Source: Escherichia coli
GTDB lineage: Bacteria; Pseudomonadota; Gammaproteobacteria; Enterobacterales; Enterobacteriaceae
Assembly (NCBI RefSeq): GCF_048403405.1
Contig: NZ_CP183129.1
Length of the DNA stretch: 64,000 nt
Direction: 5' to 3' (one strand)
Position numbers and translations under genes: made by a program. The notes under the pieces are model-generated. The model saw only the letters and a program-made list of their open reading frames with translations, did not search any database and was not told the DNA's origin. Shown here one piece after another: positions 3,296-25,875 of this stretch (its first letter is position 1; each line of letters starts with the position of its first letter).

Positions 3296-3487
3296 CTAAC
3301 GTTGTACCGGTGATTCGACGGAGAGTGTGGATTGCTGAGCTTCTTTTTTGCTCTGATGGTGCTGCCATGCACCGACGGACGAGTAGATAAAACGGCCAAA
3401 GAAGAAGATAAAGCTGATGAGCAGTACGATACGGGTCATGCGACTGTTAAATCGGTGTCGTTTTCGCATACTGGTTGCCTGACTCAC
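3296..3487 (-). CDS. yfgG: small membrane protein YfgG
   Basis: 63-aa track ORF matching E. coli YfgG with a single TM (IVLLISFIFFFGRFIY). Synteny. Confidence 0.85.
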   Translation of the reverse strand: MSQATSMRKRHRFNSRMTRIVLLISFIFFFGRFIYSSVGAWQHHQSKKEAQQSTLSVESPVQR

Positions 3488-3697
3488 AAAAGGTTCCTTG
3501 AAGTATGTCCCACGCTGTGGACGGTACTTACATTAAGGCACAACAGGACAAAATGGTCAATTCTTCGTTATGTAAAAAAGCGTCAGTGGATACATATTTT
3601 AATGTTATGGAAGTTAATTTAATTATTTACAATGATGATGTAATAATGATGAATTAACATGATAAACGTAATAATTCATTAATCAGGGTTATTTTGT

Positions 3698-3711
3698 TTG
3701 ATATATATCAA
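3698..3711 (+). promoter_or_regulatory. FNR-type binding site (TTGAT-N4-ATCAA) of the pdeF promoter
   Basis: Perfect palindrome TTGATatatATCAA, about 134 bp upstream of the pdeF ATG. A TAGAAT -10-like hexamer at about 3733-3738 places the site near -41.5 (class II geometry). Confidence 0.6.
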
Positions 3712-3838
3712 TTGGAACTTTCATATGACACTTAGAATCAATGCTCTCTATAGTGATGAATAATCATCATTCGAAGTCAGGTGGGATGCCTGTCTGAATA
3801 CACCTCCTTCAGGATGTGGGGGATTCTGCTGAGCATCT

Positions 3839-6082
3839 ATGAAACTGAATGCAACTTATATAAAAATACGTGATAAATGGTGGGGGCTTCCGCTGTTCCT
3901 GCCTTCTTTAATCTTGCCCATTTTCGCCCACATTAATACTTTCGCGCATATTTCTTCCGGTGAGGTTTTTCTCTTTTATCTGCCTCTGGCTCTGATGATC
4001 AGCATGATGATGTTTTTCAGCTGGGCGGCATTGCCAGGGATCGCCTTAGGGATTTTTGTCCGCAAATATGCAGAGCTGGGTTTTTACGAAACGCTCTCAT
4101 TAACGGCTAATTTTATTATCATTATCATTCTCTGTTGGGGCGGTTACAGGGTCTTTACTCCCCGGCGTAACAACGTTTCACATGGTGATACCCGTTTAAT
4201 TTCCCAGCGTATATTCTGGCAGATTGTGTTTCCTGCAACGCTGTTTCTGATACTTTTCCAGTTTGCTGCGTTTGTAGGATTACTGGCGAGCAGAGAAAAT
4301 CTGGTCGGCGTCATGCCTTTTAATCTCGGGACCTTAATCAATTATCAGGCCTTACTGGTGGGCAATCTGATTGGTGTCCCGCTGTGCTACTTCATCATTC
4401 GTGTAGTGCGAAATCCGTTTTATTTACGTAGTTATTATTCGCAATTAAAACAGCAGGTTGATGTCAAAGTCACCAAAAAAGAGTTCGCACTCTGGCTACT
4501 GGCATTAGGTGCTTTACTGCTGCTGTTATGCATGCCGTTAAATGAAAAAAGCACAATTTTTAGCACCAACTATACCTTGTCATTATTGCTGCCCCTGATG
4601 ATGTGGGGAGCGATGCGCTATGGTTATAAGCTGATTTCGCTGCTCTGGGCGGTCGTGTTGATGATCAGCATCCACAGCTATCAAAATTACATTCCCATTT
4701 ATCCTGGCTATACCACGCAGCTGACCATAACCTCCTCCAGTTATCTGGTATTCTCTTTTATTGTCAATTATATGGCTGTACTGGCAACCCGTCAGAGAGC
4801 GGTTGTCAGACGCATTCAGCGGCTTGCGTATGTGGACCCGGTAGTTCATCTGCCAAATGTTCGCGCCCTGAATCGCGCGTTGCGTGATGCCCCCTGGTCT
4901 GCGCTTTGTTATTTACGCATCCCTGGCATGGAAATGCTGGTTAAGAACTATGGCATCATGCTGCGGATTCAATACAAGCAAAAACTTTCTCACTGGCTGT
5001 CACCCTTGCTGGAACCGGGTGAGGATGTTTATCAGCTTTCGGGTAACGATCTCGCGCTGCGACTGAATACAGAATCGCACCAGGAGCGCATTACCGAACT
5101 GGATAGCCATCTCAAGCAATTTCGTTTCTTTTGGGATGGAATGCCGATGCAACCGCAGATTGGCGTCAGTTACTGCTATGTGCGCTCGCCAGTGAATCAT
5201 ATCTACCTGCTGCTGGGAGAGCTAAATACGGTCGCCGAACTTTCCATCGTGACCAACGCCCCGGAAAATATGCAGCGTCGCGGGGCAATGTATTTGCAAC
5301 GCGAATTGAAAGATAAAGTCGCGATGATGAATCGACTACAGCAGGCGCTGGAACACAACCATTTTTTCCTGATGGCCCAGCCGATTACCGGTATGCGTGG
5401 CGATGTCTACCATGAAATTCTTCTGCGCATGAAAGGTGAGAATGATGAACTGATCAGCCCCGACAGCTTCTTGCCGGTCGCGCACGAATTTGGTTTATCG
5501 TCGAGTATCGACATGTGGGTCATTGAGCATGCGCTGCAATTTATGGCTGAAAACAGAGCGAAGATGCCCGCTCACCGTTTTGCCATTAATCTGTCGCCAA
5601 CCTCGGTATGTCAGGCTCGTTTTCCCGTTGAAGTCAGTCAGCTGCTGGCTAAATATCAAATTGAAGCGTGGCAACTTATTTTTGAAGTCACCGAAAGTAA
5701 TGCTCTGACAAATGTTAAGCAGGCGCAAATCACCTTGCAGCATCTTCAGGAATTAGGCTGCCAGATTGCGATTGATGATTTCGGCACCGGCTACGCCAGC
5801 TATGCGCGGCTTAAAAATGTGAATGCCGATCTGCTTAAAATTGACGGCAGTTTTATCCGCAATATTGTGTCAAATAGTCTGGATTATCAGATAGTGGCGT
5901 CGATTTGCCACCTGGCGCGAATGAAGAAAATGCGGGTAGTGGCAGAGTACGTTGAAAACGAAGAGATCCGCGAGGCGGTGCTCTCTTTGGGGATCGATTA
6001 TATGCAGGGTTATCTTATTGGTAAGCCGCAACCGTTAATTGATACGCTGAATGAAATCGAACCCATTCGCGAAAGTGCCTGA
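3839..6082 (+). CDS. pdeF: cyclic-di-GMP phosphodiesterase PdeF (membrane N-terminal domain, degenerate GGDEF, EAL)
   Basis: 747-aa track ORF recognised as YfgF/PdeF. Multi-TM N-terminus. EAL-domain motifs (DDFGTGYASYARLKNVNADLLKIDGSF). Confidence 0.93.
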   Translation: MKLNATYIKIRDKWWGLPLFLPSLILPIFAHINTFAHISSGEVFLFYLPLALMISMMMFFSWAALPGIALGIFVRKYAELGFYETLSLTANFIIIIILCWGGYRVFTPRRNNVSHGDTRLISQRIFWQIVFPATLFLILFQFAAFVGLLASRENLVGVMPFNLGTLINYQALLVGNLIGVPLCYFIIRVVRNPFYLRSYYSQLKQQVDVKVTKKEFALWLLALGALLLLLCMPLNEKSTIFSTNYTLSLLLPLMMWGAMRYGYKLISLLWAVVLMISIHSYQNYIPIYPGYTTQLTITSSSYLVFSFIVNYMAVLATRQRAVVRRIQRLAYVDPVVHLPNVRALNRALRDAPWSALCYLRIPGMEMLVKNYGIMLRIQYKQKLSHWLSPLLEPGEDVYQLSGNDLALRLNTESHQERITELDSHLKQFRFFWDGMPMQPQIGVSYCYVRSPVNHIYLLLGELNTVAELSIVTNAPENMQRRGAMYLQRELKDKVAMMNRLQQALEHNHFFLMAQPITGMRGDVYHEILLRMKGENDELISPDSFLPVAHEFGLSSSIDMWVIEHALQFMAENRAKMPAHRFAINLSPTSVCQARFPVEVSQLLAKYQIEAWQLIFEVTESNALTNVKQAQITLQHLQELGCQIAIDDFGTGYASYARLKNVNADLLKIDGSFIRNIVSNSLDYQIVASICHLARMKKMRVVAEYVENEEIREAVLSLGIDYMQGYLIGKPQPLIDTLNEIEPIRESA

Positions 6083-21287: not shown

Positions 21288-22038
21288 GTAACCCCCGGAG
21301 AACGCGAAAGAGTTGCTGAACGATACTATTGAGACGCGGATCGTCAGCTTCGCGCAACCAGGTGTTAACCCGATTTCCTGTAGGATCGTCGCTTAAATGG
21401 CGCAGGAGCCGATCGCAAATTTCTCGCCCCTGACGATAGCCCGCCAGCCGCCTCGCTTCTCGCTCAATGGCGATACGCTGTGATGGCGGGATTTGCGGCC
21501 ACAGCGGTTGCATGGTCACTCCGGTGGGATCGCGATAATCCACCGCGTGAATCTTCTGTTGCAGCAAACCGAGCGCCACGGCGAAACCGTGAATGGTGGC
21601 GGCCGGTGTTGGCGGGCAGCCGGGGATCCAAACATCAATGGGGACAATGGTGTCGCTGCCGCCCCAGACGCTGTAGAGATCGTGGAAAATACCGCCGCCG
21701 ACACCGCACGCGCCGTAGGAAACACAGATTTTATGATCGGGGGCAGACTCATACGCCCGAAGTGCAGGCATACGCATCGCCCGGGTGACTGCGCCAGTAA
21801 ATAACAAAATATCGGCGTGACGCGGTGATGAAACAACCTTAATGCCAAAACGTTCTGCGTCGAATACTGGTGTGATGGCGGCAAAAATTTCGATTTCGCA
21901 GGCGTTGCAGCCGCCGCAATCGACGCGATAAACGTAGGCCGAGCGACGGATATCCTGTAACAAATGCTGCTTCATCTTTTGCGTTTGCTCGTCCAGCGTG
22001 ATGGGCTGGCTGACATGTTGCGTAAGCACTGGACTCAT
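21280..22038 (-). CDS. hyfI: hydrogenase-4 small subunit HyfI (NuoB-like)
   Basis: 252-aa track ORF with Cys-containing NuoB-like segments ([16 protein letters not shown]). Confidence 0.93.
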
Positions 22039-22580
22039 AGCTGCTCCTTAGCCACCAGCGGTTCATCTGTGTCGTCGTTGATCAGCGTCGCGCGTTGTTT
22101 GCATTCCGGGCAGACGCTCGCTTGCGCCCGTAACATTTCGCGGTTTTGTGGCGCATTTTGTTGCTGTGCCAACAGTTCTGCAGCCAGTGCGACGGTTTTT
22201 TGCGGGGCAAACGGGCGTTCGCAACGGCTGCAACGTTGTAGATGGAACGTCGCGCGGGTATAGAGATCGGCTTTATTGGTGACGGTCAGTTCAAAGTTAT
22301 TGGTAAGCTGAATGGCTCTGGTCGGGCACACTTCTTCACAACGTCCGCAGTAAATACAACGCCCCAGATAGAGCTGCCAGGTGCGCGAATTTTGCTGGTC
22401 GTCGGTCTGGATAGTCAGCGCATTTGCCGGACAAGCACAGGCGCAGGCACCGCAGGCAATACATTGGCTGGGCATCAGGTCCGGTTTCCCGCGAAAGCCT
22501 GGGCTGACTTCCAGTGGTGCGAAGGGATATTTCACCGTCGCGGTTCCGGCGCGCATAATAGTTTTCAGTAACTTCAGCAT
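22035..22580 (-). CDS. hyfH: hydrogenase-4 4Fe-4S ferredoxin-type subunit HyfH
   Basis: 181-aa track ORF with two CxxCxxCxxxCP ferredoxin motifs. Confidence 0.93.
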
Positions 22581-22589
22581 CTTCTGTCC

Positions 22590-24305
22590 TTACTTCAGCG
22601 GCGAACGGTTACGATCAATGCCGTAGCGTTCGATCTCTTTATACGGCACGGTTTTTGACTGGCGCTTGCGCACATCAACCAGCGTCACACGGTCGGTACA
22701 GGAGTAGCAGGGATCAAGGCTACCGATAATCAGCGGTGCGTCAGAAACGGTATTGCCGCGCAGCATGTAACGCAGCACTGGCCAGTTGGCGTAGGTGGCG
22801 GCACGACAGCGCCAGCGGAACAATTTTTGGTTATCACCGAGCATGCTCCAGTGCACGTCTTCACCGCGTGGCGCTTCAACAAAGCCCAGCGCGAATGCGT
22901 GAGGTTTATAGCTAAAGCCTTCGGTCAGCAGTGGGGTATCCGGCATGTTGTCGAGGGCAAATTCCAGCATTGCCAGCGAATCAAACGTCTCTTTGACACG
23001 GACCATCACGCGGGAGAAGACATCGCCGCCGGTAAAGGTAAACAGCGTTTTTGGAATATTGCCGTAGTCGGCGTAGGGGTGATCAAAGCGCAAATCACGG
23101 GCAAAGCCACTGCCGCGGATCAGCGGCCCTACGGGGCTATAATCACGGGCGATTTGTCGGTCGAGAATGCCAATGCCCTGAGTGCGTTGTTCCATATTTG
23201 GCGTGGCAAGCAGCATCTCTACCAGCTCCGACACGTCGGCGCGCATCTCACGCACCAGTTTCAGCGTTTGCAGACGTTGCTCTTTGAGAATATCGCGGCG
23301 AACACCACCAATCAGATTCAGACCGTAGGTTTTACGCGACCCGGTCAGCAGTTCCGCCATCGTCATCGACTTTTCCCGCACGCGGAAAAATTGCATAAAG
23401 CCGGTATCAAAACCAACAAAATGGCAGGAGAGGCCAAGGTTGAGCAAATGACTATGCAGCCGTTCGACTTCCAGCAGAATCGAGCGAATAGTATGCGCTC
23501 GTTGCGGCACCTCAATCCCCAGTGCATTTTCAACCGAGTTGGTATAGGCCACACTGTGGGCAAAACCGCAAATCCCACACACGCGGTCGGATAAGAAGGT
23601 CACTTCGTTGTAGCCCATCCGCGTTTCTGCCAGTTTCTCCATGCCGCGATGGACATAAAACAGGCGGTAATCAGCATCGACAATTTGCTCGCCATCCACA
23701 AACAAGCGGAAGTGACCTGGTTCATCGGAGGTGATATGCAGCGGGCCGACAGGGATCACCCGCGCGTCGCTGTTGCCCTCGTTGATAAACGGATACGTTT
23801 CGGTATCAGTCGTCGGTTCAGGGCGCAGTCGATAATCCATCGCATCTTTGCGCAGCGGATGCATATCTTCCGGCCAGTCATCGGGCAACACCAGGCGACG
23901 CTGATCCGGCAGGCCAACCGGAATCAGCCCGTACATATCGCGAATTTCTCGCTCGCCCCAGACCGCGGCAGGGACGCGCGGTGTGACTGACGGAAACTCC
24001 CGACTGTCGGCATCGACCAGTGCCTTCACCACGATCCAGCATTTTTCAGCCCCTTCCATTGAAAGGGCATAATAAACCGCGTAATGACCGTTAAGTGTCC
24101 GCTCGTCGTTGCCAAACAGGACCGGAAGCCAGCCATCATGTTGATAATAAAGATAATGTACAACGTCAGGCAGCAGATTGATTTTCACCGTAATGGTGAC
24201 CTGTTCAGGCGTTTGTCGCTCTTCATCCAGCACCGCGCCGGGGAACTGCGTTTTCAGGGCGGCGAGAATCGCTTCGCCACGATTTGACGATGAATTAACG
24301 TTCAC
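22590..24305 (-). CDS. hyfG: hydrogenase-4 catalytic large subunit HyfG (NiFe, HycE-like)
   Basis: Track ORF 22590..24350 with HycE-like sequence and a C-terminal DPCYSC NiFe ligand motif. Start set at the in-frame GTG at codon 16 ((M)[11 protein letters not shown]); the exact start is uncertain. Confidence 0.88.
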
Positions 24306-25875
24306 TGTGTTTCTCCGAAACAGATGCGGTGCCTGAAGGCAAAAAATCATGCCAGGTGCTACGTTGTGCAGGCAGGTCGTGCGTCCCTGAGAGGACTATA
24401 GTGGAAGCGCCCGCCAGGATCCTGATGACAGGTTGTGGAATATGCGTTCCCATCGCCAGCATCATGACCAGCAGAATCACCATTGGCGAGGTGGTCAACC
24501 AGCCAAGTTCACCCCGGTTAACGGCCTGCGGCGGTTTCGCCATTAACACCCGCGCAGCCATCCGTACCAGGCCCGCCAGCACCAGCGTTAACAGCAATAA
24601 CAGCAGGACGATAATCAGCAGGTGATTACGTGCCAGTCCGGCGGTAACGGTCATAAATTCGCTAAGAAAAATGTTGAAGGGCGGCATCCCTGCCAACGCC
24701 AGCGCACCGCCGCCAAACAGCACGGCGGTAAATGGCATGATTTTAAGCATTCCGCAGACGACGTTGAGATCGCGCGTGCCGTACTTGAGCAGTACATTGC
24801 CGGAACCGCAGAACAGCAGCGTTTTTGCCAGACTGTGGTTTAAGGTGTGCAGCAGCGCAGCAAAAATTCCCAGCGGCCCGCCAATGCCTAGCGCCACCGC
24901 GACCAGTCCCATGTTCTCCACGCTGGAGTACGCCAGCAGACGCTTAATGTCCCGCTGTACCAGAATGAAAAATGCCGCCACGGCAACCGACAACATGCCG
25001 AAGATGAGCAACAACCGGTTGGGGAAATCGCTGCCGATGGCCTGGCAGATAATGATGTAATAGCGAATCAGCACCAACAGCGCGCAGTTCAGCAATACGG
25101 CGGAGAGCAGGGCGCTGACCGGACTCGGCGCTTCACTGTGAGCATCCGGCAGCCAGGCGTGCATGGGAAATAGCCCGGTTTTGGTGCCAAAGCCAATTAG
25201 CACAAACACAAAGGCCAACAGCATTAATGTTGGGTCAAGCAAGGACGATTGCTTAAGAACCTCGCTCCAGAATATCGCCATTTCTGCCTGCGGCATAACG
25301 CTGGCGGCGTTGGCGTATACCAGCACGGTACCGAACAGACCAAAAGCGACACCAACAGTACAAATAATGATGTACTTCCATGCAGCTTCCAGCGATGAAC
25401 GCTGACCGTAAATGCCTACCAGAAACGCCGAGCTTAAGGTGGTGGCTTCGATCGCCGCCCACATCACAATCAGGTTATTGCTGGTAACAACCAGCAGCAT
25501 GGTGAACAAAAACAGATGGAAGAAACCGTAGTAATCGCACAGCGTAACGGGTGAAAGCTCGCCGTGCTCCACTTCATGACGCATGTAGCCAATCGAGTAA
25601 ACACCGGTGAGAAAGCCAATCACACCAAGAATGGCGAGGAACAAACCGCCCAGACCATCAATATGAAGCCACAGTCCCGCAGCGAATATTTCTCCCGCAT
25701 CAGCGGCAGTTTGGACCACCCACAGTGCCAGAATCAGCAGCAGTGTGATCCCTAAGCTATGTAGTACTGTCACCGTGCGAGTCGCAGAGTGCCCCTGTTT
25801 CCGGCAGGCAAAACAGAGCAGTGAAAAAAGCAGCGGCGTGAGCAGGAGTAAAGCGAACATCACAGAATAACTCAT
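24295..25875 (-). CDS. hyfF: hydrogenase-4 membrane subunit HyfF (antiporter-like, NuoL/M/N family)
   Basis: 526-aa polytopic track ORF. Position in the operon. Confidence 0.93.

Follow-up and report, generated by a model that had tools for sequence, protein, structure and literature searches.

Where translation of hyfG begins in Escherichia coli, and why its product is 555 aa long in some database entries and 571 or 586 aa long in others, was investigated in a stretch of 64,000 nucleotides (contig NZ_CP183129.1, called the window throughout). Positions 22500-24700 of the window are 100% identical to E. coli WP4-S18-ESBL-07, and the minus strand carries the hyf operon. The RefSeq annotation of this identical record gives the gene order hyfE-hyfF-hyfG-hyfH-hyfI-hyfJ, that is, the hyf (FHL-2) context, with a hyfF-type antiporter-like gene upstream of hyfG and hyfH downstream of it. 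The whole operon is densely packed: according to RefSeq, hyfE and hyfF are separated by 4 nt, hyfF and hyfG overlap by 11 nt, hyfG and hyfH are separated by 9 nt, and the pairs hyfH/hyfI and hyfI/hyfJ overlap by 4 nt and 8 nt, respectively. The hyfF-hyfG region (22500-24700) was present in 4294 out of 5426 complete E. coli genomes; the other 1132 gave no match to it, indicating that the hyf operon is missing from about one fifth of the complete genomes. The gene adjoining hyfG on its downstream side, hyfH (window 22035-22580), shows a 6-nt length polymorphism, with 546 nt (181 aa) here versus 540 nt (179 aa) in the K-12-like NZ_CP095088.1.

The family of the hyfG product was established on the translation of the longest open reading frame (586 aa), in which Pfam identified PF00329 (NuoC-like, 30 kDa) at residues 54-170, PF00374 (NiFe) at residues 235-303 and PF00346 (NuoD-like, 49 kDa) at residues 312-478. 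This is the NuoC-NuoD fusion of group 4a [NiFe]-hydrogenase large subunits (HycE/HyfG type). Both CxxC motifs that ligate the Ni-Fe center were found, the N-terminal one as CGIC and the C-terminal one as CYSC (in DPCYSCTDR), and their cysteines C243, C246, C533 and C536 are invariant in an alignment of 58 sequences. The translation ends in a C-terminal assembly peptide with a predicted cleavage site between a conserved Arg and VTLV, which fits the HyfG-type cleavage site described previously (PMC7384014).

Candidate start codons at the hyfF/hyfG junction

The following features of the junction are used below:

22590-24305, minus strand: hyfG coding sequence, 571 aa, 1716 nt, hydrogenase-4 catalytic (large) subunit, intact allele (RefSeq and translation)
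24295-25875, minus strand: hyfF coding sequence, 526 aa (translation and RefSeq)
24295-24297, minus strand: TAA stop codon of hyfF (translation; RefSeq puts hyfF at 3296-4876 of locus L001)
24303-24305, minus strand: GTG (GUG) initiation codon of hyfG, chosen as the start by RefSeq/PGAP in the record with 100% identity (position 3306 of the locus corresponds to 24305 of the window)
24313-24316, minus strand: Shine-Dalgarno (SD) sequence GGAG with a 7-nt spacer to the GTG, within the hyfF coding sequence (sequence and conservation)
24295-24305, minus strand: 11-nt overlap of hyfF and hyfG, probable translational coupling (sequence and RefSeq)
24348-24350, minus strand: in-frame ATG opening the longest open reading frame (586 aa), very probably unused (ORF list and sequence)

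A first-pass annotation of this DNA had read the hyfF stop, the GTG at 24305, the 11-nt overlap and the ORF start 45 nt upstream (24350) exactly, but it had overlooked that the codon at 24350-24348 is itself an ATG in the hyfG frame, and it is wrong in stating that there is no ATG ahead of the conserved N-terminal region. Between this ATG and the GTG there is no further in-frame ATG, GTG or TTG. The hyfG start reads GGAG-N7-GTG, and no SD-like sequence is present just upstream of the ATG. In all four RefSeq records consulted (the identical record, K-12 MG1655, O157:H7 and one 555-aa allele) the GTG start is annotated together with the 11-nt hyfF overlap, and in the HyfG cluster of the protein collection the 571-aa form occurs on at least 1000 contigs versus 9 for the 586-aa form, mostly in older records. 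Finney et al. 2019 (PMC7384014) likewise reported that E. coli hyfG initiates with GUG. Public databases nevertheless still list the 586-aa form that starts at the ATG (e.g. EFF01158.1, WP_001309644.1) beside the 571-aa and 555-aa forms.

Variation within E. coli was of no help in choosing between the two codons. In 4281 out of 4294 genomes the junction (111 nt) shows an identity of 99% or more, and its sole common SNP (24376, C/T) leaves the hyfF translation unchanged. Neither candidate codon varies, and the population data therefore do not discriminate between them; for the ATG, the hyfF codons CAT GAT that overlap it account for the invariance.

We therefore relied on a cross-species scan with one genome per species, which yielded 80 loci, 72 of them with a hyfF homologue that terminates where hyfG begins. 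In 66 of these 72 hyf-type loci the start preceded by an SD sequence was GTG, the codon that the first-pass annotation had named as the best candidate; it had also proposed the conservation of the candidate codons among hyf operons as a check. An ATG was scored at this position in the other six, three of which read GTGATG, with a GTG immediately before. The GGAG motif stands exactly 7 nt before the start in 55 loci and 5-10 nt before it in all 72. The hyfF stop falls at -3 to +8 nt relative to the hyfG start in 52/72, typically as GTGA or TAAnGTG, the most common arrangements being a 4-nt GTGA overlap (18 loci) and a 1-nt gap (19 loci). An upstream in-frame ATG, on the other hand, was found in just 8/72 loci, and in 34/72 the 45 nt before the hyfG start contain an in-frame stop, which would forbid an extension like that of the E. 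coli ATG form. The same pattern was seen when the DNA of the seven closest relatives was aligned: the sole invariant block at the junction is GGAGA...A.AGTGA, which comprises the SD sequence and the GTG, whereas in place of the E. coli ATG these relatives have GTG, AAG, TCG, TTG or TTC, and one Citrobacter carries a 1-nt insertion between the two candidate codons, placing them in different frames.

Two further observations concern the surroundings of the start in these loci. Directly after the start, all seven nearest relatives carry four codons (12 nt, encoding e.g. YSDS or YLAS) that E. coli hyfG does not have; the gap maps to 24300/24301 on the minus strand, just past the GTGAA of hyfG. E. 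coli HyfG therefore has a shorter N-terminal tail, and its hyfF overlap is 11 nt versus 23 nt in Citrobacter sp. Awk 4 and Klebsiella indica. In five loci from Atlantibacter and some Providencia (L027, L030, L046, L056, L057) the hyfF frame apparently enters hyfG by 100-143 nt; these long hyfF 3' ends could reflect a frameshift, a C-terminal extension or a frame-extension artefact of tblastn.

Homology at the protein level agrees with the GTG. In the GTG form, residue 7 pairs with residue 4 of the solved HycE structure (7z0s_E, E = 2e-292), the 15 additional residues of the ATG form have no counterpart in this alignment, and in the 586-aa form the NuoCD profile alignment opens only at residue 17. 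NCBIfam holds no HyfG-specific model that would fix the N-terminus and returned NuoC/NuoD-type matches only, all under the cut-offs. On the comparative evidence, which is decisive, the predicted hyfG start is the GTG at 24305, in agreement with RefSeq, with cross-species conservation and with PMC7384014. The first-pass view that the true start could not be settled is thus unsupported, because the cross-species comparison resolves it computationally. The GTG start was already present in RefSeq and in the literature, and the case is one of ordinary annotation ambiguity. It concerns annotation hygiene only, in that a minority of database entries bear a false N-terminal extension of 15 residues; when hyfG is engineered, the GTG, the SD sequence and the overlap are worth preserving intact.

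Initiation of hyfG and the competing starts

Three other ways of starting hyfG were weighed against the GTG. Dual initiation, yielding mainly the 571-aa form and a 586-aa isoform in minor amount, would be permitted by the sequence, since an ATG in an actively translated region may occasionally be used independently of an SD sequence, and every E. coli genome examined has both codons; however, everything that speaks against the ATG alone applies equally here, and no sign of selection for the extension was found in any other species, which makes such a minor isoform very unlikely. Exclusive use of the ATG at 24350, which would extend HyfG N-terminally by 15 residues to 586 aa and the hyfF overlap to 56 nt, has in its favor that this canonical codon opens the longest ORF, that it is invariant within E. 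coli and that it is used in some older GenBank records and in one WP_ record. Against this stand the missing SD sequence, the upstream stops in nearly half of the loci, the lack of conservation in the nearest relatives (one of them frame-shifted between the candidates), an extension without counterpart in HycE or any profile, and an invariance within E. coli that the overlapping hyfF codons account for, and we consider this reading highly improbable. A start further downstream, e.g. at the in-frame GTG of V25, which would leave the first approximately 24 codons untranslated, has a negligible probability, because G10, F21 and P22 upstream of V25 are invariant in the 58-sequence alignment and therefore rule it out, homology to HycE runs from residue 7, and the V25 codon is not preceded by an SD sequence.

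With the GTG as the start, initiation would occur at the GUG at 24305, guided by the GGAG 7 nt upstream in the 3' end of hyfF, and the ATG at 24350 would be a chance in-frame codon within hyfF. HyfG is thus predicted to be a HycE-like [NiFe]-hydrogenase large subunit of 571 aa. The arrangement fits a translationally coupled gene pair: the hyfG start and its SD sequence (GTG 24305, GGAG 24316-24313) are both contained in the terminal part of hyfF, on the same strand and upstream of the hyfF stop (TAA 24297-24295), and the proximity of stop and start is conserved across species, as described above. The hyfG start lies 8 nt before the hyfF stop, and terminating hyfF ribosomes therefore very probably feed hyfG initiation, so that hyfG translation may depend on translation of hyfF. 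We infer that such coupling may tie synthesis of the catalytic subunit to that of the membrane-arm subunits. Folding of the mRNA at the start (MFE -20.6 kcal/mol, z = 0.39) predicted no structure sequestering the SD sequence and no signal of obligate coupling. Between 23900 and 24800, neither a promoter nor a terminator was predicted on the minus strand, the single promoter-like match on the plus strand being at chance level, and Rfam gave zero matches in the whole window. The hyf operon is scarcely expressed under standard conditions.

A weak GUG codon may in addition damp HyfG output, as suggested by Finney et al. The GUG start of hyfG had been noted for two species only (Finney et al., PMC7384014); the 66 loci with a GTG start in our scan belong to Enterobacterales, Shewanella, Gilliamella and others. 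The breadth of this conservation suggests selection for a weak start.

A 48-nt segment and the K-12 allele of hyfG

The first-pass annotation had given the annotated HyfG length as 555 aa and noted that it fits no obvious start codon. The mismatch is real, the two starts giving 571 aa and 586 aa, but its cause does not lie in the start codon. In K-12 MG1655, hyfG (b2487, 2608487-2610154, 1668 nt) encodes 555 aa from the same GTG with the same 11-nt overlap, and the difference of 16 residues is due to an in-frame deletion of 48 nt inside the K-12-type allele. The features concerned are:

23103-23150, minus strand: 48-nt in-frame segment (16 codons), present here and absent from K-12-type hyfG (pairwise alignment; 1716 versus 1668 nt)
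23141-23150, minus strand: direct repeat GCCCGTGATT, copy 1 (10 nt), bounding the deleted segment (sequence)
23093-23102, minus strand: direct repeat GCCCGTGATT, copy 2 (10 nt) (sequence)

Direct repeats of 10 nt at both ends are the signature of slippage or of a deletion at short homology, and the deletion most likely arose by slippage between the two copies of GCCCGTGATT. Taken as a whole, the reading of the locus, namely initiation at the GUG at 24305, directed by the SD sequence and very probably coupled to hyfF, a product of 571 aa, and a 555-aa form that stems from the 48-nt deletion of K-12-type alleles, most likely born by slippage, is in our estimate about 93% probable.

The distribution of the two alleles was determined in a sample drawn evenly down the ranking of the 4294 matching genomes. 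Out of 60 rows, 30 were intact, 29 deleted and 1 a partial match, which indicates that about half of the hyf-positive E. coli genomes carry the deletion. This evenly spaced sampling replaced a megablast search with a 60-nt query for the intact allele, which returned 410 genomes, an undercount because SNPs break the 28-mer seed. The deleted allele was found in MG1655, MC4100, XL10-Gold, O121 and O111:H8, the intact allele in O157:H7, O104:H4 and the strain of the window. All 80 loci of other species are ungapped across the 48-nt segment, the segment residues S390, V392, G393, P394, R397, S399 and G400 are invariant in the 58-sequence alignment, and HycE as well as Pyrococcus MbhL retain VGPxxRxSG. 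Because all of these homologues keep the segment, the deletion is assigned as the derived state by sequence comparison. The K-12 HyfG that is used as "the" E. coli sequence is thus an allele without a universally conserved segment of 16 residues. Full-text literature searches, whose reach did not include the original description of 1997, found no report of a hyfG deletion.

AlphaFold2 models of the two alleles had mean pLDDT values of 69 and 67. At the junction of the 555-aa model a block of 10 residues averages 56, with values below 50 at residues 382-386, versus approximately 80 at this place in the intact form. Since both models are only moderate, this drop is weak evidence, and it agrees in direction with the sequence comparison.

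Whether hydrogenase-4 of E. coli functions has been asked for 25 years, and the deletion is relevant to this question. E. coli FHL-2 has been called a 'long-standing mystery' (Lindenstrauss and Pinske, bioRxiv 10.1101/563510). When the K-12 hyf operon was driven by hyc or T5 promoters in MG1655 and MC4100 backgrounds, H2 was never obtained; the C-terminal peptide of HyfG was also swapped, and the verdict was 'additional, unknown, biosynthetic problems' (Finney et al. 2020, PMC7654741). Both of these backgrounds carry the deletion allele. The laboratory-reference HyfG is thus a derived internal-deletion allele. It is conceivable, although we rate it as rather doubtful, that loss of the invariant S-x-VGP-xx-R-x-SG cripples the catalytic subunit, and that this is a main cause of the failure to obtain FHL-2 activity from engineered K-12 strains. 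If so, strains with the intact allele (the strain of the window, O157:H7, O104:H4) could make an active FHL-2. Against a simple null allele speaks that the deleted form is common in an operon that is otherwise intact, and so does the claim of Mirzoyan et al. 2017 that E. coli produces H2 in dependence on hydrogenase-4, taken here as cited in PMC11841067. Hydrogenase-4 activity in E. coli is disputed, with a negative result in engineered K-12 (PMC7654741) and this positive claim as relayed by PMC11841067. The K-12 deletion lies outside the coordinates flagged originally and is the only lead from this locus worth pursuing.

Comparison with HycE, Pectobacterium and K-12

HycE, the large subunit of hydrogenase-3 (PDB 7Z0S/7Z0T, chain E; E = 2e-292), is a NuoC-NuoD-fusion [NiFe] large subunit like HyfG. 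With the GTG start the N-termini of the two proteins agree within 3 residues, and HycE retains the ARDxSxVGPxxRxSG segment as does HyfG of the window. In contrast to HyfG, HycE belongs to FHL-1, and its gene follows hycD and not a hyfF-type antiporter-like gene. HycE starts with ATG, and the four hyc-type (FHL-1) loci that were recovered have ATG wherever a start could be picked.

HyfG of Pectobacterium atrosepticum, which is part of a functional FHL-2, shares the GUG start (Finney et al. 2019, PMC7384014). The two Pectobacterium loci of our scan (L040, L043) read AGGAG-N6-GTG with a 14-nt overlap with the hyfF end, and their 16-residue segment is intact. P. atrosepticum HyfG differs from the E. 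coli protein by a longer N-terminal tail, and its operon, unlike hyf of E. coli, includes a protease gene, hyfK (PMC7654741).

Compared with hyfG of K-12 MG1655 (b2487, NP_416982.1, 555 aa), the window has the same GTG, SD sequence and 11-nt overlap, and the junction is identical from 24375 to 24270. The differences are one synonymous hyfF SNP at 24376 and the 48 nt (23103-23150) that the window keeps.
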